IMG/VR virus record: IMGVR_UViG_3300027969_000065 | DNA length: 64,000 nt | Origin: an uncultured virus (IMG/VR IMGVR_UViG_3300027969_000065) | Taxonomy: Duplodnaviria; Heunggongvirae; Uroviricota; Caudoviricetes; Demerecviridae | Reading direction: 5' to 3' (one strand) | Shown: one piece after another, positions 1 through 21,836 of the stretch | How positions within the stretch are numbered: position 1 is the stretch's first letter | Layout: the number at the start of each line of letters is the position of its first letter | Position numbers and translations under genes: made by a program | Notes under the pieces: model-generated | Seen by the model: the letters and a program-made list of their open reading frames with translations, nothing else | Databases searched by the model: none | Told to the model about the DNA's origin: nothing

Positions 1-33
1 TACCTGGTCAAAGACCCTACAGCAATTAGGGGC

Positions 34-63
34 TTGACAAGCTGCGGTTTTCGATGGCATAAT
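34..63 (+). promoter_or_regulatory. sigma70-type promoter
   Basis: TTGACA-18 nt-CATAAT upstream of ORF 93. Confidence 0.75.
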
Positions 64-92
64 GCATTCATTGATTCAAAACAAGGGTTTAT

Positions 93-320
93 ATGAGCAA
101 GCTCAAAGACATTATCTCGGACTATGACGAAACCACGACAGAATCTATTGTCGGATATGCCCGAGATTATCATAAAGATACTTTCGGGTTTCGGCCCGAG
201 GGTATCGATTCTGATTCGGATTGGGATATTAGGGCATACTATATCACGATGATAATGTATTGCGATGAATACCTTATCAAAACTCGCGGTTCGCGCGGGC
301 TTGATGGATGGGACGAATAA
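93..320 (+). CDS. hypothetical pre-early protein
   Basis: ORF downstream of a strong promoter, SD-like AAGGG. Confidence 0.75.
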   Translation: MSKLKDIISDYDETTTESIVGYARDYHKDTFGFRPEGIDSDSDWDIRAYYITMIMYCDEYLIKTRGSRGLDGWDE

Positions 321-463
321 TGGCTCGACTCAATATGGCAAAAGCCATTTACCTTTATAATATCGCTAAGGGATTCGCATTATTGGAATCCGGTGATAAA
401 GCCGCAGCGTCGGCATACTTTGTTCGCGCACAATATGCGCTTGATATAATGGAGGGATTCTAA
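320..463 (+). CDS. small hypothetical protein (47 aa, MARLNMAKAIYLYN...)
   Basis: TAATG-coupled to the previous ORF; translated by hand. Confidence 0.6.
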   Translation: MARLNMAKAIYLYNIAKGFALLESGDKAAASAYFVRAQYALDIMEGF

Positions 464-464
464 A

Positions 465-545
465 ATGATTTGGGCAGTATTGGGGTTCTTTTCGGTTCTT
501 TTGATTGCCCTAGCGGGCATGTTTACTATTATGGGAGAATGGTAA
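465..545 (+). CDS. 26-aa hydrophobic membrane peptide
   Basis: MIWAVLGFFSVLLIALAGMFTIMGEW with GGAGG SD; fills the gap between genes. Confidence 0.55.
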   Translation: MIWAVLGFFSVLLIALAGMFTIMGEW

Positions 546-546
546 T

Positions 547-738
547 ATGTTATATGACGTATGCGTGAATCCTGTCGACGGGCGCATATTGCCTGACGAT
601 ATTCGAGAATTGCAGGATCAGTTTAACGTGAATTTGAATGATGCCGATGAATGGTTTGATTACTATTCGTCGGGATCGGGGCATGTTACTATTATCGATG
701 AAATTGAATTCTGGGAGCGATATAATGATGTATTCTAG
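547..738 (+). CDS. hypothetical protein
   Basis: ORF with GGAG SD in a tightly packed operon. Confidence 0.65.
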   Translation: MLYDVCVNPVDGRILPDDIRELQDQFNVNLNDADEWFDYYSSGSGHVTIIDEIEFWERYNDVF

Positions 739-910
739 CGCATACGAGCGCGCAAGTAATAAAATACTTGCGCATGATAATCCGGTTCGGCGGAGTATTA
801 TTCTCAGGCTTGAGAATAATAAAGTTGTACGCATTAACGAGAGTTTGCACAAAACTCGCGCAGGCGTGATATATCGTAAATTCTGGCGCATGAAAATGAG
901 GGTAAAATGA
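725..910 (+). CDS. hypothetical basic protein
   Basis: 3' part of ORF 638..910; ATG at 725/728 preceded by GGGAG. Confidence 0.55.
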   Translation: MMYSSAYERASNKILAHDNPVRRSIILRLENNKVVRINESLHKTRAGVIYRKFWRMKMRVK

Positions 911-1080
911 TGTCTTTTAATAACTATGTTATATATTATTGCCTAGACGGCAAGCCTTATGATATATATGGGGATTTTAATTCTCTAGTTGAGGCTAAAC
1001 TCGGACTGGATCAGGTAACTAAACTATATCCTGATGAGGAATATCAGCTATTTGAATGTATACCGACCAGGATAGCCTAG
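907..1080 (+). CDS. hypothetical protein (57 aa)
   Basis: ATGA overlap with the previous ORF, GAGGG SD; translated by hand. Confidence 0.55.
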   Translation: MMSFNNYVIYYCLDGKPYDIYGDFNSLVEAKLGLDQVTKLYPDEEYQLFECIPTRIA

Positions 1081-1130
1081 ATTTATACTAATAAGGGTTT
1101 ACCCTTATTAGTTTGGCGCGGGGTTTCCCC

Positions 1131-1440
1131 GCGCCGAAAATATTATATCATGGATAGTATGTAGGTGTCAATAGGGTGTTTCCCTACCATGTAGTCTGTG
1201 TGGTCAATAGGTCTTTGCTATGGGCGGCGGGATACTAATATATTATAACTATCGGGGCGCCAAAAATTATATCATGGCATCGTACTCGCTGTCAATAGGG
1301 ACTTTCCCTACCATGTAGTCTGTGTGGTCAATAGGTCTTTGCTATGGGTTTTTGAATTTGAATAGGTTTTGCCTATGGGGTGCGCCAAAAATTATATCAT
1401 GGCATCGTACTCGCTGTCAATAGGGACTTTCCCTACCATG
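1131..1440 (-). repeat. three ~125-bp-period direct repeats, each with a leftward TTGACA-18-TATAAT promoter
   Basis: Units start at 1131, 1257 and 1382 (GCGCC..ATTATATCATGG..TGTCAATAGGG..TTTCCCTACCATG). Confidence 0.85.
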
Positions 1441-1576
1441 CTCACAATAGGGTTACCTGGCCGGCCGCTCACTTTGCATGCTAGGGCTGTACGCTCACTT
1501 TGCATGATAATGGTATAAACTGTTTATACGATTTTCTGCGCGCACCTGGCCGAATAACCCTCTTTGCAGTAGGGGG

Positions 1577-1605
1577 TTGACACGTCGGTCGAATCGAAGC
1601 ATAAT
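1577..1605 (+). promoter_or_regulatory. sigma70-type promoter
   Basis: TTGACA-17-CATAAT; upstream context resembles the promoter at 34. Confidence 0.75.
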
Positions 1606-1828
1606 AGCTTCTGTTTGATGTATTAACGCTCTTTAATAATTCGCTGAATCAAGCCACAGGCATATCCCGTCGGGAGACGTTATTATGTCTGTGCAATATA
1701 GAACATATCCCTGTCGGGAGATACTGATATGCTCGTGAAATAGGGTTATGGCCTATTCTAATAATCCGTAATTGGGTTATTAGACTAGGGTTTTCCTAGC
1801 GTTAGTATGTGTCTTGAAAGGGCATAGT

Positions 1829-2164
1829 ATGTCGAAAGTTACTGTTGTGAATTATACTCCCGAACAAACCGCTTCGGTGGTTTCCGGATATACTAATGGT
1901 ATGTCTGTTGAGAGTTTGGCTGCCGAAATGGGGAAATCGGTTCGTTCGATTATCGCCAAACTCTCGCGGGAAGGGGTTTATAAGGCGAAAGTATATCAAA
2001 CCAAACAAGGCGAAGCGGTTATTAAAAAGGACGCTCATGCCGATGCGATTGGTTCGATTCTGAATCTTACAGAATCGGAAACTGAAAGCCTGACGAAGGC
2101 TAATAAATCGGTTTTGCGTAAAATCTTCGAGGCTTTGGCTACTTCAAAGCCAATCGAGGGTTAA
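1829..2164 (+). CDS. T5 A2-like DNA-binding protein
   Basis: YTPEQT...LAAEMGKSVRSIIAKLSREGVY...ESLTKANK pattern resembles T5 A2. Confidence 0.7.
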   Translation: MSKVTVVNYTPEQTASVVSGYTNGMSVESLAAEMGKSVRSIIAKLSREGVYKAKVYQTKQGEAVIKKDAHADAIGSILNLTESETESLTKANKSVLRKIFEALATSKPIEG

Positions 2165-2300
2165 TATATTATAGGGCGAAAGCCCTATAATATATGGGTT
2201 GGTTCAAAAAGTAGGGGGAATAAGTCAGTAATATGTTTTTACTGCGTTCAGCCTCAACGTAAACCCATATATTATAGGATTTTTAACTGGAAAGGATAAT

Positions 2301-2768
2301 ATGGCAAAGATAAAGCGGGTTCAAATATACGATATGGACGGTACTATTGTGTGCAGTTTGCACAGATATCGCACAATCGAGGGTAACAGAATCGACCTAG
2401 AATACTGGCGGGAAAATCAGTATCGTGCAATGGAAGATTCACTGCTGCCATTATCGGCACAATATAGAAAAGATTTGCAGGATGAAAATACTTATGTCAT
2501 TATTGCAACCGCCCGAGTTATGGGCGAAAAGGATTATCAGTTTGTGCGTGAGATACTCGGCGAACCCGATTATCTCATATCTCGGCCAGCAAATAGTATT
2601 CACAGTGGGGGTTTGCTCAAGATAAGGGGTTTACAGAAATTCTTTAATCTAAAGAATTTCAGGGACGCTGAGATAACATTTTATGAGGATAATGTCCAGT
2701 ATCTCAAAGCAGTATGCGACAAATTCAATATTCGGGGCGTATATGTTCCGAGTAAACAAGGGCATTAA
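2301..2768 (+). CDS. HAD-superfamily phosphatase
   Basis: DMDGT motif I, TAR motif II, YEDN acidic motif. Confidence 0.75.
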   Translation: MAKIKRVQIYDMDGTIVCSLHRYRTIEGNRIDLEYWRENQYRAMEDSLLPLSAQYRKDLQDENTYVIIATARVMGEKDYQFVREILGEPDYLISRPANSIHSGGLLKIRGLQKFFNLKNFRDAEITFYEDNVQYLKAVCDKFNIRGVYVPSKQGH

Positions 2769-2770
2769 TA

Positions 2771-3475
2771 ATGGCTAAAAAACAGTATTTTGCAATCGTC
2801 GATGTGGAAACCACAATTAATAATACTGTTGCGGATTTTGCAATGGTAGTTTGTGACCGCAACGGTGTTATTGTCGATCAGTTTGCAGTATTGGTCAAGG
2901 ATAATTTCGACACAATGGATTTATTCTATATTGCAAATAATCGCGAGGGTGATATGTGGTCAAGGAAATATGCTGCAGATAAAAAAGAAAAGTATATTAA
3001 CATGCTTAATAACGGCACTCGCAGTATGTCATCGGTTGCTGCCATTAATATTTATATTGCCCGTATAATCGGTCAGTATAACCCTGTTATGACGGCGTAC
3101 AATATTAGTTTTGACGAAGGTAAGTGTGCCAATACTAATATTGATTTGACCGGGTTTGCAGATAGATTCTGTTTGTGGGCTGCTGCTGTTGGCAATATCT
3201 GTAAATCGAAAGGGTTTCGACAGTTTGCCTTAGATAATCACCGGTTCAATAAGCCCACAGATAAGGGCAATATGACATTTCAAACTAATGCGGAGGTTGT
3301 TTCTGGTTATCTAGCAGGCAGTATGTCGCACGAACCGCACACTGCGCTGGAGGATATTGTTTATTTCGAGTTGCCGATTCTCAAGACAATTATTAATAAA
3401 CGCGGTTGGAAGGAAAAACTAAAATCATATTCGTGGAACGATTTTCAGGTTCGTGATTGGTTTGTTGCTAAATAA
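2771..3475 (+). CDS. DEDDh 3'-5' exonuclease-like protein
   Basis: DVETT, AYNISFD and HTALED motifs. Confidence 0.75.
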   Translation: MAKKQYFAIVDVETTINNTVADFAMVVCDRNGVIVDQFAVLVKDNFDTMDLFYIANNREGDMWSRKYAADKKEKYINMLNNGTRSMSSVAAINIYIARIIGQYNPVMTAYNISFDEGKCANTNIDLTGFADRFCLWAAAVGNICKSKGFRQFALDNHRFNKPTDKGNMTFQTNAEVVSGYLAGSMSHEPHTALEDIVYFELPILKTIINKRGWKEKLKSYSWNDFQVRDWFVAK

Positions 3476-3513
3476 TACTCGGGGCTTCGGCCCCTAATCT
3501 GGAGAATATATAT

Positions 3514-3882
3514 ATGAAAATGGTCGGCTTGTTTGAATTGATCGATTTAACTGTCGAGTATCTCGGGCTTGAAAAGCCTTATACTATCAAACTGAATTCG
3601 AAGTCCAAGAAGTCGGTATCTGCCGAGTATATTGCAAAATATAACCGCGGTGACGTTCTGGTTTCGCATCAGATTACTATATACTTGGGGAATCAACGCA
3701 CTGATACTAGGGATATTGAAACCCTGATTGCTCACGAATTGATACATGCTTATCAGGAGGAGGCCGGTATCGAGGAAATTCACGGCGACGATTTCCAGAG
3801 TATCGCGGAAATGCTAACCATGTATCTGCAAACCGCGGGTATATATATCTGCGATATATATGTTGCTGATGTTGACGTTTAA
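3514..3882 (+). CDS. SprT-like/zincin metallopeptidase domain protein
   Basis: TLIAHELIHAYQ (HExxH) followed by HGDDF. Confidence 0.65.
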   Translation: MKMVGLFELIDLTVEYLGLEKPYTIKLNSKSKKSVSAEYIAKYNRGDVLVSHQITIYLGNQRTDTRDIETLIAHELIHAYQEEAGIEEIHGDDFQSIAEMLTMYLQTAGIYICDIYVADVDV

Positions 3883-3895
3883 TTAAAGGGATAAT

Positions 3896-4150
3896 ATGAA
3901 AGCAAATCGAGATACTAAATGTTTCATTACTGCGGATGACAAAGAAATACCAGTTTCCGTGGTGCGCGAAGTATGCTTATCCTCGCGCAATACTTACCCC
4001 CACGGTGGTGATGGTATTAACATTATACCTGCGATCAAGATACTGTTCGCAGTATATCCAGGGTTATCACTGCGAGATGCAAAGGATATGATTAATCTAT
4101 ATCTGGCAATTGAGGGCATGGACGTTATTAAATCTAAAGGGATAATATGA
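3896..4150 (+). CDS. paralog 1, ribosomal L7/L12 C-terminal-like motif
   Basis: IPAIKIL...GLSLRDAKDMI; near-identical to the next two ORFs. Confidence 0.6.
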   Translation: MKANRDTKCFITADDKEIPVSVVREVCLSSRNTYPHGGDGINIIPAIKILFAVYPGLSLRDAKDMINLYLAIEGMDVIKSKGII

Positions 4151-4380
4151 AAGTTAATCGAGTTACTAAATGTTTCATTACTGCGGACGATACTTCGATT
4201 CCCATATCCGCGGTGCGCGCGATATGGTTGTTTTCGCACCGACCAGTAGGCCCGCTCGGTGGTATTAACATTATATCTGCGATCAAGATATTGGTCGCAG
4301 TATATCCGGGGTTATCACTGCGAGATGCAAAGGATATGATTAATAATCTATATCTGGCGATTGACGGTACTGACGTTTAA
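4147..4380 (+). CDS. paralog 2, L7/L12 C-terminal-like motif
   Basis: Tandem duplicate with the same AAAGGGATAATATG start. Confidence 0.6.
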   Translation: MKVNRVTKCFITADDTSIPISAVRAIWLFSHRPVGPLGGINIISAIKILVAVYPGLSLRDAKDMINNLYLAIDGTDV

Positions 4381-4394
4381 TCTAAAGGGATAAT

Positions 4395-4652
4395 ATGAAA
4401 GCAAATCGAGTTACTAAATGTTTTATTACTGCGGACGATACCGCAATCCCCATATCCGCGGTGAGCGCGATATGGTTGTTTTCGCGCAATACTTACCCTC
4501 ACGGTGGTATTAACATTATATCTGCGATCAAGATACTGGTCGCAGTATATCCAGGGTTATCACTGCGCGATGCAAAAGATATGATTGATTTATATCTGGC
4601 GCTGGTCGGCACAGATATTCCCGAGAATTCCGACCAGGATAACAGATTCTAA
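4395..4652 (+). CDS. paralog 3, L7/L12 C-terminal-like motif
   Basis: Tandem duplicate with the same AAAGGGATAATATG start. Confidence 0.6.
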   Translation: MKANRVTKCFITADDTAIPISAVSAIWLFSRNTYPHGGINIISAIKILVAVYPGLSLRDAKDMIDLYLALVGTDIPENSDQDNRF

Positions 4653-4734
4653 TATCGCCAGATATTCGGGTGGTCATACTCTTATTAGTATCGCGAGATA
4701 CTAATAAGGGTAAACCCTTATTTGGCGCAAAAGC

Positions 4735-4895
4735 GCGCCAGTGCGAAATCAACAAGTGCAAAATCAATGATTTTCCGCGATTTAAGGTACTTGCATGGGT
4801 TTCTTAGTCTGTCTGATTTTGCGCCAGTGCGAAAGCAACCAGTGCAAAATCAATGTGGTTCGGCCTGCGCCAAATTGTACCAGTGCAAAACCAAC
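4735..4895. repeat. iteron-like repeats AGTGC(G/A)AAA x5
   Basis: GCGCCAGTGCGAAAnCAACnAGTGCAAAATCAATG at 4735 and 4821, plus CAGTGCAAAACCAAC at 4881. Confidence 0.75.
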
Positions 4896-5060
4896 GTGTC
4901 AAGTAAAAAATTTCAGATTTGAAGAAGTTTCCGTGTTAGTTTATAATAATGTTTATGAAGTCGGGAAAGGCATCCGCCCCAACCGGCCGGAGACGTAAAT
5001 AACGTCGCCGAACTATCGTTAGAATGTAGTTGGTACTAACATACCGCTAAAAATTCTCAC

Positions 5061-5089
5061 TAGACACGCAACCTCTTCTCGTATATAAT
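5061..5089 (+). promoter_or_regulatory. sigma70-type promoter
   Basis: TAGACA-17-TATAAT with an AAAATT UP element. Confidence 0.7.
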
Positions 5090-5114
5090 ACTTTCTTAAC
5101 TTAGGAAATCAACC

Positions 5115-5474
5115 ATGGCAACCGAAAAAGCTTACACCCCAGAACAAACCGCTTCTACCCTGGCCGCCTACGCGGCAGGTCAAACACCTGAACAAATTGC
5201 GTTTGACATTGGCCGCAGTGCACGCTCAGTGATCGCCAAACTGGCTAAGGAAGGTGTTTACGTGTCCAAGGCTGCAGTAGCTGGCCCGAAACGTCTCCGC
5301 AAGTCTGAGTTGGTGGCATGTATCGCAGGTTACTTCGATATTGACCCGGTTGAGCTGGAAAGCTTGGAGAAGGCAACTCACCAAGCTCTGGAGCGCTTGC
5401 ATGCCAGCATCACCAGTGGTAACGGCCACTGTGCGGTAACCGAGCTGGACGTGGTCCTGACCACTGCAGTTTAG
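5115..5474 (+). CDS. T5 A2-like DNA-binding protein (paralog)
   Basis: YTPEQT...IGRSARSVIAKLAKEGVY...LESLEKAT. Confidence 0.7.
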   Translation: MATEKAYTPEQTASTLAAYAAGQTPEQIAFDIGRSARSVIAKLAKEGVYVSKAAVAGPKRLRKSELVACIAGYFDIDPVELESLEKATHQALERLHASITSGNGHCAVTELDVVLTTAV

Positions 5475-5490
5475 GATCAGAAATTTCGTC

Positions 5491-5519
5491 TTGAACTCTC
5501 GACCCATTTGATTTATAAT
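5491..5519 (+). promoter_or_regulatory. sigma70-type promoter driving a non-coding transcript
   Basis: TTGAAC-17-TATAAT with AAATTT upstream. Confidence 0.7.
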
Positions 5520-5690
5520 ATTATCATAAGTCGAGAGTAGTAACAAAGGCTCGCAGATACATATTAATTTTAATCTTGTCTTTGTTACTGCATCTCCCTA
5601 TATTATTTTGGTGTTTCTAGGCTCCCAACGATGAGGGGGATAAAAACTTAATTGTTGTTGAAACCTCTTGTACAACAGCCAACCCTTTAA

Positions 5691-5761
5691 ACCTACTGAT
5701 GAGCTTGTGCAACTCAAGCGAAATCCCGGTCGCAGTCTCACAAACTCCCAGGGATATAGGT
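5691..5761 (+). ncRNA. type I hammerhead ribozyme
   Basis: Stem I ACCTA/TAGGT, core CTGATGA, stem II GCTTG/CAAGC, GAAA, stem III TCCC/GGGA, NUH=AUA (predicted cut after 5756). Confidence 0.88.
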
Positions 5762-5925
5762 CGCCTTCATCTAAACCTAAGACCCCCCCAATACAAGGGC
5801 AATGTGGGATAACATACCAAACGGTGGAACCGCAGGTAGATTATTCGACCCCACAGGCGATTCAGGGCTTTAGCAGTAAATACATCGTGTATATTCTCTA
5901 ACAGCCCTAAAAAACTGCGCAGTTC

Positions 5926-5966
5926 AAAAGCCCCACAGGATTCGCGGCCTGGTGGGGCTTTTGTTT
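5926..5966 (+). terminator. intrinsic terminator (possibly bidirectional)
   Basis: AAAAGCCCCAC...GTGGGGCTTTTGTTT. Confidence 0.75.
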
Positions 5967-6102
5967 GAGCTGTCGGCGCCATTTTAACATGGTCACAGTG
6001 CAAAGTCAACCGTAAATTTTTAACCCTGACCCTAAACCGCAGCAAATTGGGTGTAATTGGGTGTATTTGTGGATATTGAGACTTAATTCGTGGCACCCAA
6101 AG

Positions 6103-6141
6103 AAAAAGCCCAATAACTTGAGTTATTGGGCTTTTTTTTTT
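6103..6141. terminator. bidirectional intrinsic terminator
   Basis: AAAAAGCCCAATAAC-TTGA-GTTATTGGGCTTTTTTTTT. Confidence 0.8.
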
Positions 6142-6188
6142 GCGTTTGTTTGGGGTGTTTGGCACCGTAGGTGCCTGTATCCGGCGGT

Positions 6189-6491
6189 TTAGGGTCTGAC
6201 CAGGGACTTTTCAATGAGTGCCAGCACATTCTTGTTGGCTTTTTCAAGCGATTCTAAGAGGTCTAGATTGACCATCATGAGCTTGGCAATGCGCTCGATG
6301 TACTCCTCCTTTTTAACAGGCGTCTCACCGCGCTTGTTTTTGTACTCTTTGCGTTGGTAAACACCCAAACTACTCAGTTTTGCAATTACAGAGCGTTCCG
6401 GTACGTTGAATTGCTCGGAGATTTCTGACACGGGAATGCCAGATTTATATAGGTCGATTAGTTTGTCTGTGGTTTCTTTGTCGTATTTCAT
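6189..6491 (-). CDS. T5 A2-like HTH protein (paralog)
   Basis: VPERSVIAKLSSLGVY...GETPVKKEE...LESLEKANK. Confidence 0.7.
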   Translation of the reverse strand: MKYDKETTDKLIDLYKSGIPVSEISEQFNVPERSVIAKLSSLGVYQRKEYKNKRGETPVKKEEYIERIAKLMMVNLDLLESLEKANKNVLALIEKSLVRP

Positions 6492-6495
6492 TTGA

Positions 6496-7362
6496 TTAGT
6501 CTAAATTCCATAGGTTATCTGATCCTAAACTGGGCTTACTGAATCCAACGTCACTGTTGAAAACCTGCGGCACATCTAATAAGTCTGTGGATACTAGGGG
6601 AACGGCAGGGTTGTCTAGATTTAACGGATCTGAGATGGCAAACTTATGTCGTATTGTTGGATGATATACCCATACCTGGCACAGCATTAGCTTGAGTAGT
6701 CTAGGCAAAGGCTTCCATAAAGGATGTGCTATGCCGTTTAGTGTAGTAGTTAAGTGATACGCTTTCTTAGCATCTTTGTTTGCTCCCGATTTAATGGTAC
6801 GTCCGATTTCTCGGAATTCTAGAATTTCTTCTTGAGTAAAAGGATTGTCCCAAGTGTTGAACACACTGCTGAGTTCCAAAGTATCCTGATCTACTAAGTG
6901 TTGCATATTCTTATCAGACCAATCCCAATCTGCATATCCAACATCCCTACATTCTTTAAATGCGGATAGGATCAAGGGTACCGCGGTACTATACCGCATA
7001 CCTTCACCACTAGACTGTTTCCACCCTTTTGGAAATATCTCACCGCGCGGACTATGATTAAGAATATTAAAGATGCCCATAATCTTGGAGGCTGAGACTT
7101 CTAGACCATTGCTAAAGGTAAATCCCTCGGTTGCTAGAGTAGTCTTGAGCTTGGCTAAAGTTGCTGTTGCGCTATATCCCAGGTCACCTTGTACTAGGAG
7201 TAACTTTGACCCTAGAAGTGTGGTAAGTTGAGGAAGCATCCAACTAGCGTTGTCAGTCCATCCAGAACTGGCTAAAGATTCCTTGGTGGTGGAATCTGCT
7301 TTGCTGAATTGCTCGAAGTTAAAATAGCTTATATCACGTTTGGAAGTCTTGGAGTAGTTCAT
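6496..7362 (-). CDS. T5 D2-like protein
   Basis: PRGEI...RYSTAVPLILSAFK...WD motif resembles T5 D2; probable start MNYSK at 7362. Confidence 0.6.
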   Translation of the reverse strand: MNYSKTSKRDISYFNFEQFSKADSTTKESLASSGWTDNASWMLPQLTTLLGSKLLLVQGDLGYSATATLAKLKTTLATEGFTFSNGLEVSASKIMGIFNILNHSPRGEIFPKGWKQSSGEGMRYSTAVPLILSAFKECRDVGYADWDWSDKNMQHLVDQDTLELSSVFNTWDNPFTQEEILEFREIGRTIKSGANKDAKKAYHLTTTLNGIAHPLWKPLPRLLKLMLCQVWVYHPTIRHKFAISDPLNLDNPAVPLVSTDLLDVPQVFNSDVGFSKPSLGSDNLWNLD

Positions 7363-7716
7363 TTTTGGAAAGGGTTTAAGTGAATTATTGGGGGTTTTTC
7401 TTAGCGGGGGATGATAAAAGGGCGGGAAATTTAGCTTTAATTTGCTTTTATTAAAGCTTCGCTCGTTTGCATCATTTGATATCGGAAGGGGAAAACCTGA
7501 GAGAACTCTCTTAATTTCCGTAGATTTTAAAACCAGCTTTGTAATGGATGAAGTTAACAAGTGAACTCCAATACAAGGCTGTTAAAAAGTCTTCGGAATT
7601 AATGAATTCTCGGTTTTGCCTTCCTAGTTAACTTTGTTTATGTATATATTATATCACACTTTTTTCAATTTTACAAGCTTTTTTAGTAAAATAATTAAAA
7701 TTATTTTTTCCCTGGT

Positions 7717-7908
7717 CTATTTGTACGTAATTTCCCGTTGCAAAGTGATTCTGCGCACATCTGTTTCTTTGCATTGCAGGGTTAGCGGGCCGTTTGAAAT
7801 GGTCAGTGGAGTTTCTTGGACTACATGAAAAATGTCGTCTTTGAATTGCAGAAACCTGTGGTTATGGTCTCGTTCAAAGTAGTGACTCAGTAATGTGCAG
7901 CGTTTCAT
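7717..7908 (-). CDS. hypothetical protein
   Basis: ORF coupled to its neighbour in a leftward operon. Confidence 0.55.
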   Translation of the reverse strand: MKRCTLLSHYFERDHNHRFLQFKDDIFHVVQETPLTISNGPLTLQCKETDVRRITLQREITYK

Positions 7909-8309
7909 TGGCGTGTTCCTGTTGATTGTTTTTGATCTGCTGAGTATAAAGCATGCTGGTATTGTTCATGCAGCGGCTTTATCCAGAGTCTGGCCTGGTG
8001 GGCATCGTCCATGATCTGTGCTGCGGCTGGCCGATACCGGAGCAACTCTGTGGCCGCTTCGTCTAGTAAATCTGCAATGCTGTCTGATTGCGCGGCCAGT
8101 TCTCGGCGAAGTCTAGCACGCTCTTGTAGTCGGTAGATTAAGTTGGTTTGTGTGTGTTCTTCTGGCACAAACTCTTGTATGACGGATTCAGCAAATTTGT
8201 AGATTTCTTGGTTGATCCACTGGTTTTGTGCACTGGAGTAAAAGTTACCATCTTCGTGCAGGTCAAAACCCGATTGTTGTGCCAGTTGTTTGATCTTTTC
8301 AGCTCTCAT
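7905..8309 (-). CDS. hypothetical protein
   Basis: ORF with AAGGA SD. Confidence 0.65.
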   Translation of the reverse strand: MRAEKIKQLAQQSGFDLHEDGNFYSSAQNQWINQEIYKFAESVIQEFVPEEHTQTNLIYRLQERARLRRELAAQSDSIADLLDEAATELLRYRPAAAQIMDDAHQARLWIKPLHEQYQHALYSADQKQSTGTRQ

Positions 8310-8457
8310 TTAGTTGTTCCTTGACGGCATTGTGCCTGTTGTTTGTAGTATTCTTGCATTCTTTTGTTCCACTGTTCAGGAGTAGGATCACGCAGCAAGC
8401 CTTGTGGTCGGCTGGGTTTGCTATTCGACTTCAAACTTGAATATGCTGTTCTAAAAC

Positions 8458-8607
8458 TCATACTTCTTGCTCCTCTTGTCGTAGTGCTTCATTAAAGCCA
8501 GCAGTGTATACTAGATCTAACATAGGGATAAAAGCTGTAATCATATCTTCTGGCATACCCTGCATGCCTTCGATAACTGCCTCAATTACTGCTTCTTTAT
8601 AGTTCAT
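8458..8607 (-). CDS. small hypothetical protein (49 aa, MNYKEAVIEAV...)
   Basis: GGAG SD; translated by hand. Confidence 0.55.
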   Translation of the reverse strand: MNYKEAVIEAVIEGMQGMPEDMITAFIPMLDLVYTAGFNEALRQEEQEV

Positions 8608-8651
8608 TCAAACGCTCCAAGTCTTGTTTCAAAGTTCTTTAATATGTTTGT

Positions 8652-8993
8652 TCATCGGTAGACCTCTATGGCAGCACAGGGTTCGTTCCAGCAGGCTGTA
8701 CGGTATTCATAAACAAACTTACAAAGATCGTTGTAATTACCCCAACCATTCTCTGGATTAAGTTGTCGAAAACGATCAGGCTCACTGAGTAGTATGTTCC
8801 AGCCTTCGTCTAGTAATTCTGCAATATCCTCGGCAAGTACCAGCTCGTGTTCATCGGGCCGCCATAACACATCGTATAGTGAGAGTCCGTTGGACAATTT
8901 GACTTCAGAGGCCATCTTGCCCAAGTTATGAGTAATGTTGTTGTCATAGACTGAGACAGGTTTTGTAACCATTAAGTTCACAGTTAAACTCAT
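8652..8993 (-). CDS. conserved phage hypothetical protein
   Basis: NITHNLGKMA...NPENGWG motif, common in phage ORFs. Confidence 0.7.
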   Translation of the reverse strand: MSLTVNLMVTKPVSVYDNNITHNLGKMASEVKLSNGLSLYDVLWRPDEHELVLAEDIAELLDEGWNILLSEPDRFRQLNPENGWGNYNDLCKFVYEYRTACWNEPCAAIEVYR

Positions 8994-9277
8994 TCTTCAA
9001 CTCCAAAATGTTGTTCAATATACGCTGCGGCATTGAGTTGCCCAGCATACAATTCATCGTTCATACCACGATAAACGCATTGATTCAAACATTCTCGCAC
9101 AACAAGTTGGGCAAATTTTTCGTATTCCCAGCTGTCCACCAACCGTGCTATGCCTGATTGTTGGGCAAGTTTTTGAATCGTAGTTTGTGCAGTGGGCAAC
9201 CCGCTTTGCAGCGGGTAACCTTCACAGTAGGGCTCTCCGTAGAGACGTTCCAATTCAAAATCTGTTTGTTGTGTCAT
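8990..9277 (-). CDS. hypothetical protein
   Basis: Coupled ORF with FAQLVVREC motif. Confidence 0.65.
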   Translation of the reverse strand: MTQQTDFELERLYGEPYCEGYPLQSGLPTAQTTIQKLAQQSGIARLVDSWEYEKFAQLVVRECLNQCVYRGMNDELYAGQLNAAAYIEQHFGVEE

Positions 9278-9435
9278 TTTAGTACTTTTCCTTGCTTTAG
9301 TTTACAATGTCCAATAACATCACGAGCAGTGTTGCTGAATTTAACACACCAATCATTGTACCGCGACCCTAAATTGCTGGTCTTGGGATGATTGGCATCA
9401 TGATGATACTTGCATTCTTTACAATGTTTGTTCAT
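9274..9435 (-). CDS. small Cys-rich protein
   Basis: MNKHCKECKYH... with AGGAG SD and upstream promoter. Confidence 0.6.
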   Translation of the reverse strand: MNKHCKECKYHHDANHPKTSNLGSRYNDWCVKFSNTARDVIGHCKLKQGKVLK

Positions 9436-9523
9436 TGCATTTCTCCTGTTTAATATAAATATTATAGCACAAAGCAAAAGGGGACTCAAGTCAAAAATCA
9501 TTGACCTGAGCCCCCTCGGAGTG

Positions 9524-9739
9524 TTAACGCATTTTAGAGATATCTCGTGCTTCTTGTGTGCTGAACACAGGCACTGCATTTGACTTGTGCATGGTGGCAA
9601 TCCCCAGCACCTTGTCGCCTGTGTATACTTTTTTCGGAGCAAGTCTGGCAATTCCAAACCCAATGCCCAGGCTAGGGATTTTGGGATCGGTAGACCCTCG
9701 CCAAGTCGAAACTTCTGGCTTTTTATAAGTGAATTTCAT
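9524..9739 (-). CDS. conserved phage hypothetical protein
   Basis: YTGDKVLGIATMHKSNAVPVF motif, widespread in myo/siphophages. Confidence 0.7.
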   Translation of the reverse strand: MKFTYKKPEVSTWRGSTDPKIPSLGIGFGIARLAPKKVYTGDKVLGIATMHKSNAVPVFSTQEARDISKMR

Positions 9740-9933
9740 CGTAGTATTACTGAGTTTAGACCTGTTTCTGCTTCTTCAAATTCTCCGTAATACCATTTAG
9801 GGTCAGGATATTTTGTCATGTATGTGTCTATAACCCTACACACTGGATTGTAGCCGTCTTCATAGCTTGGTATGACTACAACCGCATCTTTGTTCAGCAA
9901 CTTTAAAGTATCGATTAATTCTTGAACTGTCAT
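9736..9933 (-). CDS. hypothetical protein
   Basis: MTVQELIDTLK...YEDGY small phage family. Confidence 0.65.
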   Translation of the reverse strand: MTVQELIDTLKLLNKDAVVVIPSYEDGYNPVCRVIDTYMTKYPDPKWYYGEFEEAETGLNSVILR

Positions 9934-10140
9934 TTAGCACTCCGGATCAAAACTGTTCCACTCGTCGCTTTCTGTGGGGTCGCGCTCGTCTTCTGCGTAC
10001 CTGTTGTCAAAATTATTAATCTCCAGCATATCACGAATGTCATCACCGCCCATAAACTTCAAGCATGCTTCTAGCATTTCACGTTCACTGACATAACCGT
10101 CGTCAACCAAGAACAAGGCATCATCAAGGTAGTCTTGCAT
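9934..10140 (-). CDS. hypothetical protein
   Basis: Start MQDYL with GGAG SD; ends EWNSFDPEC. Confidence 0.65.
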   Translation of the reverse strand: MQDYLDDALFLVDDGYVSEREMLEACLKFMGGDDIRDMLEINNFDNRYAEDERDPTESDEWNSFDPEC

Positions 10141-10226
10141 ACAATCTCCAGATTTAAAAGAATATTTTAGCAAAAAAAAGGAAAACACTTCAAGTTAGTA
10201 TTTTCTAACTTGAAGTGTTCCCACAA

Positions 10227-10424
10227 TTAATCGTCGTAGTCTTCGAAATAAGAGTCTTTTTTAGACTTTTGCCACTTCTTCTGTGGCAATGCTTCTTGAT
10301 GACGTGCTTGCAGTCGGCTGGGCTTGGTGCTTTCTTGGGCTTCTACAACATCGACTTGATAGCGTTCAAAGTCTTCTAGAACGCGGGTGGCTAAAATGCC
10401 CTTATTTGGTGTCTTACTTTTCAT
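10227..10424 (-). CDS. hypothetical protein
   Basis: Start MKSK coupled to the hydrolase stop. Confidence 0.55.
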   Translation of the reverse strand: MKSKTPNKGILATRVLEDFERYQVDVVEAQESTKPSRLQARHQEALPQKKWQKSKKDSYFEDYDD

Positions 10425-10834
10425 TATTTGTCTCTGTAAAAGGCGTGAGTGCCAATAGTCTTGATCTTTTTGAACTTGCGAGCCCATGGTGGACTCGCAC
10501 TCTTGTGGTGAAAGTAAAGCGCATCGAACTTGGTTAATTCATGATGACCACGCAAAGCACGTTGAGCTATACTCAGAGATTCTTGGTCTGTACCGTTGCG
10601 GTGATGCCGAGTCCATGAAAACTGACCTGGCTGGTAAACTACTCTGCATATAGAACCAGGAAATTTAGGATCTTTAGTCCTGTTGATTGTTACTTTGGCA
10701 ACAGCCAATTTGCCCAGATAACTCTCGCCTCTGGCTTCATGATATATGTTTCGTGCCAAACACACTGTTTCTGTGTTGAAAGCATGGATCGTTGCAGGTA
10801 ACAGCAGCAGAACTATTACCAGAGCCTTCAGCAA
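10424..10834 (-). CDS. cell wall hydrolase, SleB/Hydrolase_2 family
   Basis: Signal peptide; CLARNIYHEARGE...GKLAVAKV..NR...FP.SIC.VVYQPGQFSW. Confidence 0.9.
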   Translation of the reverse strand: MLKALVIVLLLLPATIHAFNTETVCLARNIYHEARGESYLGKLAVAKVTINRTKDPKFPGSICRVVYQPGQFSWTRHHRNGTDQESLSIAQRALRGHHELTKFDALYFHHKSASPPWARKFKKIKTIGTHAFYRDK

Positions 10835-10906
10835 AACACCAGTCGAACAAGCTCGACCAGTGCTGTTACAACCAAGACTACAACTAAAAAGTATCCCACA
10901 GATAGT

Positions 10907-11098
10907 TCAGGTTTGCTTTGCGAGTAATTCATTTTGCTGTTTCTCCAGACGCTTGATTCGTGCAGTGTTATAAGCTACCTCACTGGTTGCCCAATCAAGA
11001 GCTGTGTTTGCTTGCAGCAATCGATGGCGTGCAGCATACAGTTCTTCGGCAACAGAGTGTTCTAGTGTGGGACGTTTGAATAAGTTTTTGATTTTCAT
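10907..11098 (-). CDS. hypothetical protein
   Basis: ORF directly downstream of a leftward promoter. Confidence 0.6.
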   Translation of the reverse strand: MKIKNLFKRPTLEHSVAEELYAARHRLLQANTALDWATSEVAYNTARIKRLEKQQNELLAKQT

Positions 11099-11154
11099 AA
11101 GATGATTGTACTTGTTTTTGCTCAGCAGTTCAAGTCAGAAATTTTAATACAAAA

Positions 11155-11310
11155 TTATTTTATCTGTGTGTTAAACAGGTGAAGAAACTCTTGCACGTCT
11201 TCAGGCGGCACTGCAGTATGCAGCGGAAGCTTTTTCCACCACAAGAACGCTGTTTTAGGATCTCGATCAGACAGGATCTGCTTGATGTGTTGAATTTCCA
11301 GTGTCGACAT
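11155..11310 (-). CDS. hypothetical protein
   Basis: Start MSTLE with AGGAAG SD. Confidence 0.5.
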   Translation of the reverse strand: MSTLEIQHIKQILSDRDPKTAFLWWKKLPLHTAVPPEDVQEFLHLFNTQIK

Positions 11311-11572
11311 GTTGGGCTTCCTTTGAGGTGGTTTTGGCATTTTGAGTTTCAAAAGCTTTTACAAGTTCATCATGGCTTGTTGCTAGTGCTTGATGGTTCA
11401 ACTGTAGTTGGTTATAAGCAACCATTACATTATTTAGTTCTTCTTTTAGCCTCTTTAGTTGTCTGCCTGCTCGTAGTTCTCTGGCAGTGGGTGGACGTAC
11501 TTCTATGGTTTCAGTTCCGTCTTGTTGGACTATAAATTTTATGGTACCTTGCATTAACTCGTCATCTAGCAT
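11267..11572 (-). CDS. hypothetical coiled-coil protein
   Basis: Start MLDDE with AAGGA SD; divergent promoter upstream. Confidence 0.6.
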   Translation of the reverse strand: MLDDELMQGTIKFIVQQDGTETIEVRPPTARELRAGRQLKRLKEELNNVMVAYNQLQLNHQALATSHDELVKAFETQNAKTTSKEAQHVDTGNSTHQADPV

Positions 11573-11721
11573 TGGTTTTATCCTTTCAATTACATTTATT
11601 ATAATCGAAAGGGTACACAAAATCAAGACAAAAATTAAAAGCCCGCGGCGCCGACATGAAAAAACCGCGCTTGCTTTAGGTTTGCCGTAATGATATAATG
11701 TTTCGAAATGAGGAAGATAAT

Positions 11722-11898
11722 ATGAGCACTGATAGTCAGTATGTTGAGCATCTAGAAAAAATAATCATGGAAAAGCTTTTACCGGTTTACAACAAGTATT
11801 ACTCTTTGCTGGGAATACCCAAACCAGACCTAGATTTGCCTGTAGAACTCAAAATACGACAAAAGCTACCAGCTCTGTTTTTACCTAGAAAAAAATAA
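11722..11898 (+). CDS. hypothetical protein
   Basis: GAGGAAG SD; promoter TTGCTT-17-TATAAT at 11671-11699. Confidence 0.6.
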   Translation: MSTDSQYVEHLEKIIMEKLLPVYNKYYSLLGIPKPDLDLPVELKIRQKLPALFLPRKK

Positions 11899-12088
11899 GT
11901 GGGGTTTTCACGTTTACCTCGCACGACCGAAAGGCAAGAAAAAACTAAATCGTTGCATAAGTCAATTTACAGTGAGGCCTACAAGCCTTGCCAATTCCTT
12001 GGCTGTACATACTGTGAGACTCATTGTAGTGAGCAGGTATATATGTCGTGAGACAAACCGTGGTACCGGGGTTAACGGTACACCCCCT
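11899..12088 (+). ncRNA. candidate structured ncRNA
   Basis: ORF-free; nested stems GGGGT/ACCCC, CACG/CGTG, CACGAC/GTCGTG, TACAGTGAG/CTCATTGTA. Confidence 0.45.
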
Positions 12089-12109
12089 AACTTTTAACCA
12101 AATTAAAAA

Positions 12110-12496
12110 ATGTATACAATTGATCCCAAGTTAACAAACCTCGACGCTTATAAATGGACAGGCCCACACACAGTGCCGGGCACAAAAGTCGCAGTACGTG
12201 ACGATGAACACAAAACAAACTGGAGTCTGATGCCGTTTGAGGCTTTAGAAGAGATCAACAAAGTACTAGAGTTTGGTGCCTCAAAATACGCTGTGAACAA
12301 CTGGCAAGAAGGCTCAGGATTTAAGTATTCACGAGTATTGAATTCTTTGCTTAGACATGTCTTTGCGTTCATGCGCGGCGAAGACAAAGACCCAGAATCT
12401 GGGTTGAGTCACATGGCACATGCTGGCTGCAACGTGCTGTTTATATTGTATTACTTGAAGAATAAGGCAAGGTATGCCAACGATGACAGACAATGA
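12110..12496 (+). CDS. dATP/dGTP diphosphohydrolase N-terminal domain protein (DUF5664-like)
   Basis: SLMPFEALEEINKVLEFGASKY..NNW..G...SLLRH...DPESGLSHMAHAGCN. Confidence 0.85.
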   Translation: MYTIDPKLTNLDAYKWTGPHTVPGTKVAVRDDEHKTNWSLMPFEALEEINKVLEFGASKYAVNNWQEGSGFKYSRVLNSLLRHVFAFMRGEDKDPESGLSHMAHAGCNVLFILYYLKNKARYANDDRQ

Positions 12497-12699
12497 ACGA
12501 AATTGAACAACTACTCTACAGAACACGCAACACAGTATTAGACGCACGTCAAGAACTAAACTTAACAGTTGAAGATGTTGAGCTGCTTAATATAGAACCC
12601 TGTAGTAGTTGTAGTATATGGCTAAAACCAAAAGAACTAAAGCCAGATCAAGATGGTCTGCCCATCTGCAAAGATTGTCTGCGTTGGTATGGATTCTAA
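12493..12699 (+). CDS. zinc-finger hypothetical protein
   Basis: CxxC...CxxC. Confidence 0.65.
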   Translation: MNEIEQLLYRTRNTVLDARQELNLTVEDVELLNIEPCSSCSIWLKPKELKPDQDGLPICKDCLRWYGF

Positions 12700-12758
12700 A
12701 ATATTGACTTGACCCTAAACCGCAACTCTGATATAATTTGTGTCTACAAAGGATAACT

Positions 12759-13748
12759 ATGTTCGCACAAAACCACAATCGCATCGGGTTTGCTTGTAAG
12801 CCTACATCTGTAGATTTGCCTCAAATTACTTCAACCACAATCAAGTGGCTCGCTTCTCAAACTCGTGATTGTGCAGTCACACGACTACGCACTTTGATGC
12901 AACAAAACGTAGACACACTAACCAAACACATTCGCTGGCTGGGTACTCTGCCCAATCACTTACGAATGTATCGCATTTCAAGCGAGTTATGCACTGCGTA
13001 CACGCATCCAGACTGGATGTGGTTCTATTTCGAGCCTGAAACAGTAACCTGGCTTGAAACCAATCTAGGACGTGTTGGTGAGTTAGCACGTGAGCTAGAT
13101 GTGCGTTTATCGTTTCATCCAGGTCAGTTCTGTGTACTTGCCTCAGACAACGCCGAGGTTGTAGAACGCAGCATCATGGAGTTCGAGTATCACGTTGACA
13201 TGATTCGTTACATGGGTTTCGGCCGAGAATTCCAAGACTTCAAGTGTAATGTACACGTCGGCGGCAAAAAAGGCCCAGACGGCATCAAACGCGCTGTGCG
13301 TTCACTGAGCCGAGAAGCACGCAATGTACTGTGCATCGAGAACGCAGAATTTTCCTGGGGCTTGGCTGCATCACTGGAACTAGTAGATACATGTGCTTTG
13401 ACCCTAGACGTGCATCATCACTGGATTGCAACCGGCGAGTACATCTTGCCACTAGACTCACGAGTACAACAACTGTGGACTTCTTGGCGTGGTGTACGCC
13501 CAGTTGTACATTACTCGCAATCACGCGAAGATGTTGTAGGCGACGACTGGGACTCAGACACTTTAGTAGACTTAAACCAAGTAATGAGCCTAGGCTACAC
13601 TCGTGCACGTTTACGCGCACACTCAGAAATGTACTGGAACACAGCACAGAATCAGCTAATGAAACAATTCTTACCACATGCAGACGTTATGTGCGAAGCC
13701 AAACAAAAGAATTCGGCAGCACATGCATTTGCCCGACAAGTACTATAG
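12759..13748 (+). CDS. uvsE: UV DNA damage endonuclease (UvsE/UVDE)
   Basis: RIGFAC, YRISS, RLSFHPGQF, IEN, LDVHHH, RAHS, DVMCEAKQK motifs; own promoter at 12709-12737. Confidence 0.92.
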   Translation: MFAQNHNRIGFACKPTSVDLPQITSTTIKWLASQTRDCAVTRLRTLMQQNVDTLTKHIRWLGTLPNHLRMYRISSELCTAYTHPDWMWFYFEPETVTWLETNLGRVGELARELDVRLSFHPGQFCVLASDNAEVVERSIMEFEYHVDMIRYMGFGREFQDFKCNVHVGGKKGPDGIKRAVRSLSREARNVLCIENAEFSWGLAASLELVDTCALTLDVHHHWIATGEYILPLDSRVQQLWTSWRGVRPVVHYSQSREDVVGDDWDSDTLVDLNQVMSLGYTRARLRAHSEMYWNTAQNQLMKQFLPHADVMCEAKQKNSAAHAFARQVL

Positions 13749-13823
13749 GGAGCCTTAGTACAATGGACAGTACAGGAGTCTTCTAAGCTCTCGATGTGGG
13801 TTCGATTCCCTCAGGCTCCGCCA
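13749..13823 (+). tRNA. tRNA-Arg(UCU)
   Basis: GGAGCCT/AGGCTCC acceptor, CT-TCT-AA loop, TTCGA, CCA. Confidence 0.93.
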
Positions 13824-13852
13824 ATTTTTCTCAACCAACCTCAAGGATTACA

Positions 13853-21392: not shown

Positions 21393-21460
21393 TAGCTCAG
21401 AGGTAGAGCAGTTGACTGTTAATCAATTGGCCGGAGGTTCGATCCCTTCTCGAGGAGCCA
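21386..21460 (+). tRNA. tRNA-Asn(GUU)
   Basis: TCCTTGA/TCGAGGA, CT-GTT-AA loop, GCCA. Confidence 0.92.
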
Positions 21461-21760: not shown

Positions 21761-21836
21761 CTTTCCAATAACACCCCCCAAGCCTATCTGGTAGCCATTA
21801 CTACCGTGATGCTCAAACCGGGGGGTTTATTGGAAA

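Follow-up and report, generated by a model that had tools for sequence, protein, structure and literature searches.

A conserved type I hammerhead ribozyme in a predicted gene-free early transcription unit of T5-like phages

What does a phage transcribe from a segment that carries a promoter and a terminator but no recognizable gene? This question is raised by positions 5491–5966 of an uncultured virus (IMG/VR record IMGVR_UViG_3300027969_000065; Caudoviricetes, Demerecviridae), whose DNA of 64,000 nucleotides (nt) was analysed over its full length and is called the window below. An original prediction, made from the sequence alone, had placed a complete type I hammerhead ribozyme in this segment, with a cut after A5756, and had proposed an undescribed system of ribozyme-processed small RNAs. 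Our analysis makes it likely that 5491–5966 is a gene-free early T5-like unit with two sigma-70 promoters and an intrinsic terminator, in which a conserved type I hammerhead cuts the transcript in two. The ribozyme is composed of the following parts, with stem lengths in base pairs (bp):

5691–5761, plus strand: type I hammerhead ribozyme, identified with a descriptor scan, the covariance model R1 and orthologue comparison
5691–5695/5757–5761, plus strand: stem I, ACCUA/UAGGU, 5 bp
5696–5702, plus strand: core CUGAUGA, with the conserved C3-U4-G5-A6-N7-G8-A9 present
5703–5707/5715–5719, plus strand: stem II, GCUUG/CAAGC, 5 bp, loop UGCAACU
5720–5722, plus strand: GAA (G12-A13-A14), present
5723–5727/5751–5755, plus strand: stem III, AUCCC/GGGAU, 5 bp, closing a 23-nt insertion

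The promoter, stems, hammerhead and terminator of the original prediction were all located at, or within a few bases of, the positions given for them, and the hammerhead was indeed complete, with a consensus core, three 5-bp stems and conservation in related phages. The junction pairs are intact in the window (G5703-C5719 at 10.1-11.1, A5723-U5755 at 15.1-16.1 and A5695-U5757 at 1.1-2.1), and the order of the parts along 5691–5761, with stem I open and loops closing stems II and III, corresponds to the type I topology. The H17 nucleotide is A5756 (not G), and cleavage would be expected between A5756 and U5757, the site that had been predicted. Loop II (UGCAACU) is similar to the UGAGAUU and UGAAACU loops of the IMG/VR family described below, and the AA immediately 5′ of stem I is common to most members of that family; no tertiary partner between stems I and II was assigned. 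A descriptor scan of both strands of the window returned 5691–5761 as the sole match with stems of at least 4 bp. In 1000 first-order Markov copies of the window, the random expectation was 0.055 matches per copy for stems of at least 3 bp, 0.003 for at least 4 bp and 0 for at least 5 bp. Because approximately 250,000 sequence windows were scanned, the Markov figure alone is insufficient to exclude chance, and it is the homologues that settle the question.

The noncoding unit begins directly after the stop codon of a gene encoding a helix-turn-helix (HTH) DNA-binding protein, which was used as a synteny anchor:

5115–5474, plus strand: HTH DNA-binding protein gene, 119 amino acids (aa), phrog_1725 at 9.5e-07, phrog_323

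Searches with this protein gave 18 IMG/VR loci and 30 metagenome loci, and two further contigs, G003 and L103, entered by other routes; both carry the upstream HTH gene. For all relatives of the HTH protein that were at least 46% identical and had enough downstream sequence, a type I hammerhead was present downstream of the gene on the same strand. Six lineages share this arrangement, each in a unit without a long or conserved open reading frame (ORF); the percentages refer to the identity of the flanking protein:

The window and L069: 92% identical; the L069 contig ends exactly at the last base of the ribozyme
L002 (identical to L071 and L072): 49% identical
L074: 49% identical
G003/L099: 49% identical; G003 is a 124-kb contig with terminal repeats, with the HTH gene at 55014–55295 and the hammerhead at 56559–56654
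L103: 50% identical; a 105.5-kb contig, with the HTH gene at 206–566 and the hammerhead at 1391–1489
G001/L001: 46–48% identical; a variant form of the hammerhead

Across these lineages, the core, the G10.1-C11.1 and A15.1-U16.1 pairs and H17 (A or C) are invariant, and at least two Watson–Crick pair types occur at 8 of the 12 stem positions, while the stem III insertion is 23 nt long in the window and 50–53 nt long in the other lineages. A comparison of the window with L069 gives identities of 95.8% for the hammerhead, 86.8% for the leader, 73% for the second promoter (P2, see below), 88.3% for the HTH gene and 100% for the segment 5475–5519. The three differences within the hammerhead consist of one base in loop II and a compensatory change from U-A to C-G (5736/5744) in an extension of stem III. 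Because the core is invariant, the stems covary, the synteny extends over six lineages and the identity between the window and L069 is high, these sequence comparisons indicate that the motif is a real, selected hammerhead. The architecture of promoter, hammerhead and terminator that had been described for this locus is also found in other phage lineages, downstream of the orthologous HTH gene. No hammerhead was found in the 40 loci at ≤40% identity (L003–L018 and L075–L098), and a relaxed scan of 51 loci (215,805 bases, both strands) detected none outside those named. In L001, a 193-nt unit of tRNA-Glu and the variant hammerhead occurs as a tandem duplicate (3908–4285); should this variant still cleave, the fragment released between its two cuts would bear both a 5′-OH and a 2′,3′-cyclic phosphate.

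A wider family was retrieved from IMG/VR with the pattern CTGATGAGCTTG-N3-15-CAAGCGAAA, which represents the core and stem II of the window. The pattern finds 44 loci, and a complete hammerhead with all three stems is present in 43 of them: type I in 41 and type III only in two (L023 and L053), with none in L041. From the 27 distinct type I sequences, 25 (≤64 nt) were aligned, the long L021 and L028 types being left out, and the covariance model R1 was built from this alignment, with the window not among the training sequences. Standard pairs account for 99.7% of the 367 cells of the alignment, and 12 of its 15 pairs changed on both sides, which none of 500 shuffles reached. In these relatives, the ribozyme usually lies right after a stop codon and 10–25 nt before the next co-directional ORF. 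Within 1 kb of the uncultured phage L057 (1495–2478), three type I hammerheads each lie between small ORFs, a clean example of gene-by-gene punctuation. When R1 was applied to the 18 HTH-derived IMG/VR loci, nothing significant was found; the hammerhead of L002 scores only 9.1 bits because of its long loops, and the descriptor scan was needed instead. Among named phages, blastn of the 81-nt ribozyme gave just 28-nt matches, limited to the core and stem II, in two Bacillus phage Moonbeam records and six Acinetobacter phages, and blastn of 5400–6200 against 50,697 phage records gave no match.

The ribozyme lies within a segment delimited by predicted transcription signals and closed by a second HTH gene:

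5491–5519, plus strand: promoter P1, TTGAAC-17-TATAAT, sigma-70-like, 10 of 12 consensus matches
5539–5548/5580–5589, plus strand: arms of a hairpin between P1 and P2 in predicted folds, the 3′ arm overlapping the −35 region and spacer of P2
5576–5604, plus strand: promoter P2, TTGTCT-17-TATATT, 9 of 12 matches (TTGCCC-17-TATAAT in L069)
3′ of the hammerhead, plus strand: hairpins GTGGG/CCCAC and AGGGC/GCCCT, which appear in predicted folds
5925–5966, plus strand: intrinsic terminator with 12-nt arms, 5925–5936/5952–5963 (CAAAAGCCCCAC...GTGGGGCTTTTG), then TTT; T run TTTTGTTT
6189–6491, minus strand: convergent paralogous HTH gene, 100 aa, phrog_323 at 2.4e-08

Equivalents of P1 follow the orthologous gene in L074 (TTGAAC-17-TATAAT) and L002 (TTGACC-17-TATAAT). 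The promoters located directly after the HTH gene in the relatives score 10–11 of 12, and a terminator follows the hammerhead in L002, L099 and L074; the window terminator shares its sequence frame (CAAAAGCCC...GGGCTTTTGTTT) with that of the L002 unit. Tandem promoters with a start-to-start distance of approximately 85–90 nt were scored in the window and L074, and a second promoter at a comparable distance was seen by eye in L001 and L103. A hairpin at the place equivalent to that between P1 and P2, with different arm sequences, was also recognized in L001, L074 and L103 (by eye, with no formal count). The orthologous units have no ORF in common, and those delimited at both ends are as follows:

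L002: promoter 3312–3340, terminator 3824–3859; the longest plus-strand ORF has 28 codons in 515 nt
L099: promoters 2842–2870 and 3015–3043, terminator 4218–4246; the longest plus-strand ORF has 61 codons in 1378 nt
L074: promoters 1176–1204 and 1266–1294, terminator 2768–2795; the longest plus-strand ORF has 75 codons in 1589 nt

Two further structured regions flank the ribozyme, one on each side of the predicted cut:

5609–5681, plus strand: Y-shaped RNA module (Y-module), 89.7 bits with the covariance model R2, starting at about the P2 transcription start
5757–5924, plus strand: body of the 3′ cleavage product, with two long predicted hairpins, 5804–5854 and 5865–5908

The Y-module consists of a closing helix (GGU/GCC), a second helix (GUUU/AAAC), hairpin A, a single-stranded CUUAAU and hairpin B, and its hairpins vary in sequence between lineages with their pairing kept. 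R2 scores are 71–94 bits in the window, L069, L070, L099/L021 and L100. In six distinct sequences, 89.9% of 109 cells were paired and 11 of 20 pairs changed on both sides, which 0 of 500 shuffles reached; this count was made on an alignment fitted to R2, which tends to favour the model. Such a fitted alignment was preferred because RNAalifold on a MAFFT alignment missed hairpin B, owing to a register shift of one column. The module matched no Rfam family, and nhmmer with the module alignment returned only training members.

In the relatives, the Y-module is associated with a transfer RNA (tRNA). It ends approximately 2–12 nt upstream of tRNA-Glu(UUC) in L070 and G003/L099, and in L103 the Y-module (1199–1272) is followed by tRNA-Glu (1314–1389) and then by the hammerhead, which starts at 1391, 2 nt after the CCA. 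Such a tRNA-Glu lies between the Y-module and the hammerhead in L103, L074, G003 and G001. The hammerhead follows the Y-module after 9–11 nt in the window and L069 (9 nt in the window); no tRNA was found in 5400–6200 of the window or in the L069 unit, and L002 is also without one. The hammerheads of L103 and the window share the loop II type (UGCAAGU and UGCAACU, respectively) and the AUCC start of stem III. Because the Y-module is followed directly by a hammerhead with an L103-like loop II and AUCC start, the window unit appears to be a reduced form of the noncoding RNA and tRNA operon of the relatives, from which the tRNA is missing. The gene-free operons of the relatives extend over 1.2–1.6 kb (L103, 700–1960; L074, 1212–2800; L001, 3460–4700). 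By eye, they contain repeated modules, GGGTGGACAGCGG...CCTTAATTGCCGRGAA, which occur twice in L103, and a further common block after the hammerhead, GTTAGCCTAC...GTAGAGGTGAA, with no Rfam family in L001.

On the other side of the cut, the 3′ fragment has a fold z-score of −2.12, with 6 of 200 shuffles folding as well. In the predicted fold, the released strand of stem I re-pairs internally (5759–5766 with 5856–5863), which would disfavour re-ligation. BLAST of 5475–6190 against the relatives revealed no diverged homologue of 5757–5924 beyond 13–16 nt at the terminators.

These elements suggest the following course of events. Host sigma-70 RNA polymerase would read the unit from P1, P2 or both to the intrinsic terminator; stem II would fold first during transcription, followed by stem III, and the emergence of the 3′ strand of stem I (5757–5761) would then permit internal transesterification between A5756 and U5757, in line with established hammerhead chemistry. 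The 5′ product would be the Y-module fused to the ribozyme and ending in a 2′,3′-cyclic phosphate, with a length of approximately 146 nt from P2 or, as originally predicted for transcripts from P1, approximately 230 nt. The 3′ product, also foreseen by that prediction, would be approximately 210 nt long, starting with a 5′-OH, containing the two long hairpins and ending with the terminator hairpin. In the relatives, the corresponding order is promoters, structured modules, Y-module, tRNA-Glu(UUC), hammerhead, further noncoding RNA and terminator. The hammerhead lies near the 5′ end of the unit in L002, in the middle in the window and near the 3′ end in G003, approximately 95 nt before the terminator. 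Because its position differs in this way, the most economical reading is that cleavage uncouples neighbouring functional RNAs of one operon. That the non-canonical ends alter RNA stability or the handling of the products by host end-dependent RNases is a conjecture.

Several observations weigh against this account of a conserved, self-cleaving unit. The shifting position of the hammerhead means that no single fragment architecture is conserved. In L070 and L073 (48% identical), no hammerhead was found in the 474 and 297 nt left after tRNA-Glu, and in G001/L001 the hammerhead, which has an additional U after A9 and a stem I of 2 bp, looks degenerate, which means that the element can decay. R1 scored 5691–5761 at 52.5 bits (E 3.5e-16, a rough figure; the runner-up match in the window reached 12.1 bits), but this test is partly circular, because the pattern that fetched the training set was taken from the core and stem II of the window itself; stems I and III, like the cut site, formed no part of that pattern and are independent of it. 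Of the assembled contigs from two RNA libraries, X5 covers 5463–5638, X13 covers 5797–5935 plus 162 divergent letters, and one of them apparently spans the cut site in a variant. Because their ends, strand and level are invisible and DNA carry-over is possible, these contigs speak neither for nor against transcription or cleavage.

A further point against the ribozyme is that the Rfam hammerhead models matched nothing in the window at the gathering score, nor anything in 5400–6200 at E ≤ 10. The same models at the gathering score also left unmatched 20 loci of the same phage subfamily with compact textbook hammerheads, and against RAGATH-1-hammerhead (RF03152) the compact relatives reach only 22.8 bits (5 loci, E ≤ 10), compared with a gathering score of 56.3. 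At E ≤ 1, L001 and L002 yielded neither a usable hammerhead match nor a family for the Y-module. Because textbook members of the subfamily were missed too, the negative result is regarded as a false negative of the models; the check with Rfam models, which the original prediction had proposed, would have wrongly dismissed a real hammerhead. By its core and topology, the window ribozyme is of the same class as Hammerhead_3 (RF00008), Hammerhead_II (RF02276) and RF03152, yet none of these scores the window at E ≤ 10; by model, it is thus not a RAGATH-1 hammerhead in 5400–6200 at that threshold. Hammerhead_1 (RF00163), also of this class, was absent from all outputs. The phage type I subfamily is effectively unrepresented in Rfam 15. 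Given that one stem II variant alone leads to at least 44 IMG/VR loci, annotation pipelines miss this subfamily.

A further objection concerns folding. With nearest-neighbour energies, the hammerhead fold of the window has −14.2 to −14.9 kcal/mol, and a competing fold, in which the stem III insertion is paired to G8, A9 and the 5′ strand of stem II, is 4.3 kcal/mol more stable. The competing fold is likewise favoured in L069, with a gap of 4.3–4.4 kcal/mol across the two sequences. In the other lineages, the minimum-energy fold is the hammerhead fold (in L002, within 0.5 kcal/mol), and of the 25 sequences of the compact family, 18 have no gap and the rest one of ≤2.0 kcal/mol. The window and L069 are also without the tRNA-Glu, and a degenerate hammerhead exists in G001, so the ribozyme could be a leftover that served an ancestral operon of tRNA-Glu and noncoding RNA and, after loss of the tRNA, became roleless or largely trapped in an inactive fold. 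We consider this unlikely: neither sequence has lost a core nucleotide or any of the three helices, no transcribed segment other than P1 is better conserved than the ribozyme, one of whose three changes is a compensatory pair, and L002, which also lacks the tRNA, has a perfect hammerhead. Moreover, the order of transcription would let stem II form before the competing strand exists and so would favour the active fold, although slow, gated or poor cleavage is possible. The gated case, in which the stem III insertion of the window and L069 evolved an anti-stem-II strand and a factor or the kinetics of transcription would switch cleavage instead of leaving it constitutive, draws on the competing duplex of L069, GAGCUUGUG/CACAAGCUC, which is a perfect 9-bp helix that only 15 of 20,000 shuffled loops equal. 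This duplex is also present in the window, with one C·A mismatch, but its longest perfect run there, 5 bp, is matched by 5235 of 20,000 shuffles, only two closely related sequences are involved, the A5744G change, through which the L069 duplex becomes perfect, can equally be read as one half of the compensatory pair in the hammerhead fold, and no ligand or protein is indicated, all of which makes a switch improbable. A more general version, with a decoy of the 3′ strand of stem II in the stem III insertion of every lineage, was rejected: 5-mers with at most one mismatch are expected by chance in such loops about half the time (an estimate), and the minimum-energy folds of the other lineages are the hammerhead or within 0.5 kcal/mol of it, so the idea was kept for the window and L069 only.

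The two remaining alternatives deny the ribozyme altogether. The original prediction had found no convincing ORF and had named ORF 5668–5901 as the possible refuter; this is an open frame of 77 codons (77 aa) with a weak Pfam match to Mucin-like, and a small protein encoded by it or by a shorter ORF would make the hammerhead-like motif incidental. The Pfam match, the only one, is below threshold (18.3 bits against a cut-off of 28.7), the TTG start has no visible ribosome-binding site, and the frame meets a stop at codon 9 in L069, where the flanking protein is 92% identical. No homologue was found among 5.8 billion protein clusters within the reach of the search, there is no PHROG match, and the relatives share no ORF; such a protein is therefore highly improbable, and the view that the unit is gene-free stands. 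Chance occurrence of the hammerhead consensus might be argued from its shortness, the number of sequence windows read and the absence of an Rfam match, but it is refuted by the comparative data, namely six lineages whose orthologous hammerheads have an invariant core and covarying stems, together with an IMG/VR family in which 43 of 44 loci carry a complete hammerhead, and we regard its probability as negligible. A conserved hammerhead within a gene-free transcription unit thus remains the preferred explanation of the locus.

For phages and prophages, hammerheads have been on record since 2011, when they were described in a gene-punctuating arrangement between ORFs (Perreault et al. 2011, PMC3088659). 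On this point, the notion of an undescribed system of ribozyme-processed RNAs was too broad; what stands is that a literature search found, among the papers listed, no publication that ties hammerheads to T5-like phages. According to the parts of that article drawn on here, the window ribozyme resembles the type I phage hammerheads in its catalytic core, three-helix junction, open stem I, H17 cut site and tailed-phage origin, and it is the close IMG/VR relatives, not the window, that lie tightly between co-directional ORFs in the described arrangement. Unlike the mRNA ribozymes of the same parts of the article, the window ribozyme is located in a stand-alone, gene-free unit between convergent genes, is fused to a conserved structured module and has an insertion of 23 nt in stem III. 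What bacterial and phage hammerheads do biologically is still considered largely elusive, at least in the portion of the review PMC6765202 cited here.

Theta ribozymes, which are minimal ribozymes of the hepatitis delta virus (HDV)-like type, adjoin phage tRNAs in gut phages (Kienbeck et al. 2024; the sections of PMC10879173 cited here), and a small self-cleaving ribozyme likewise lies beside a phage tRNA in the relative L103. In contrast to the theta ribozymes of those sections, the present one has a hammerhead rather than an HDV-like fold, it occurs in freshwater T5-like rather than gut phages and the window unit has no tRNA. With a hammerhead core and no tRNA in 5400–6200, the window ribozyme falls outside the theta class. 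The hammerhead of L103 cannot generate the tRNA's 3′ end, because its cut site, located at the distal 3′ end of this ribozyme, lies approximately 96 nt beyond the tRNA CCA. The tRNA-adjacent phage ribozymes known from the literature are of the HDV-like theta class only, as far as the cited sections of PMC10879173 go, which do not mention hammerheads.

We place the ribozyme, as a new member, in a known class, and see the conserved noncoding operon of Y-module, optional tRNA-Glu and hammerhead as a new form of phage transcription punctuated by ribozymes. A gene-free unit from promoter to terminator that is conserved across T5-like lineages is a cleaner case than the cutting of polycistronic mRNA, the usual proposal, and with a cultured relative, what a phage gains from a self-cleaving noncoding RNA would become directly testable. 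A more far-reaching proposal, for which we have only low expectations, is that freshwater and marine T5-like phages share an early noncoding RNA operon with strong promoters, with a Y-module outside any known family, a type I hammerhead with an enlarged stem III and usually a tRNA-Glu between them, that both products function while the host is being taken over, perhaps as stable decoys or as regulators that are spared by end-dependent host RNases, and that the stem III insertion gates cleavage in the window lineage. If so, the ribozyme would be more than a punctuation mark, creating a Y-module RNA with a 2′,3′-cyclic phosphate and an RNA with a 5′-OH.

The genomic setting is that of a T5-like phage. 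The DNA polymerase (35278–37563) shares 48.8% identity with its counterparts in T5-like Vibrio phages, pVp-1 among them, ten genes for tRNAs and one for a transfer-messenger RNA (tmRNA) lie at 13.7–25.7 kb of the window, and the sequencing runs that contain the stretch are freshwater and lake metagenomes. ORF 2301–2768 (155 aa, with a DxDGT start) encodes a homologue of the T5 deoxynucleoside-5′-monophosphatase Dmp (41% over 87 residues, E 4e-17), whose counterparts in G001 and G002 are 72% and 66% identical. In T5, dmp is a gene of the first-step-transfer region (annotation of the T5 record, NC_005859), and the homologue supports the assignment of this part of the window to a T5 pre-early-like region, which the original prediction had called the host-takeover region. 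The PHROG label of this ORF, polynucleotide kinase, had suggested an end-healing enzyme for the products of the ribozyme; the idea was discarded in view of the missing Pfam match, the DxDGT start and the homology to T5 Dmp, and the product is probably a Dmp-like HAD phosphatase. Like the T5 pre-early region (NC_005859, 1–10219), the region has a Dmp homologue, many small genes and strong sigma-70-type promoters, and the order of the tRNA cluster and then the replication genes also resembles that of T5. Unlike in T5, the flanking HTH proteins have no similarity to A2, and the descriptor scan found no hammerhead in T5 positions 1–14000.

The flanking genes had been described as A2-like, but BLASTP of both HTH proteins against T5 A2 gave no alignment at E ≤ 100. 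They instead encode paralogous HTH proteins, the product of 6189–6491 being 33% identical to that of 5115–5474 (E 4e-10), and convergent HTH homologues are also located downstream in G001 and G002. With tblastn, the 5115–5474 protein matched none of the 50,697 phage records. A repeat of approximately 16–22 nt, CCAGTGCAAAAYCAAY, occurs in six copies at 4732–4895 and 5989–6010, five upstream of the HTH gene promoter and one beyond the unit terminator; these repeats may serve as sites at which the HTH proteins encoded nearby bind. The arms GACCCTAAACCGC/GCGGTTTAGGGTC (6028–6040 and 6184–6196, with 143 nt between them) form a perfect 13-nt inverted repeat, which brackets a bidirectional terminator (6099–6140) and reaches the stop codon of the convergent HTH gene.

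Elsewhere in the window, three tandem paralogous ORFs of 84, 77 and 85 aa are located at 3896–4652, each starting with MK(A/V)NR(D/V)TKCFITADD, and the first of them has no Pfam or PHROG match. The tmRNA gene in the tRNA cluster (21398–21803) scores 154.5 bits with the permuted (two-piece) model RF04321 and 147.9 bits with the beta-proteobacterial model RF01850; ARAGORN gives the tag peptide ANDSIFAMAA, and the gene overlaps a predicted tRNA-Asn (21386–21460). A gene for a UvdE-type ultraviolet endonuclease (window 12738–13823; PF03851, 3.8e-40) has an end at 13748, and tRNA-Arg(UCU) starts at 13749.

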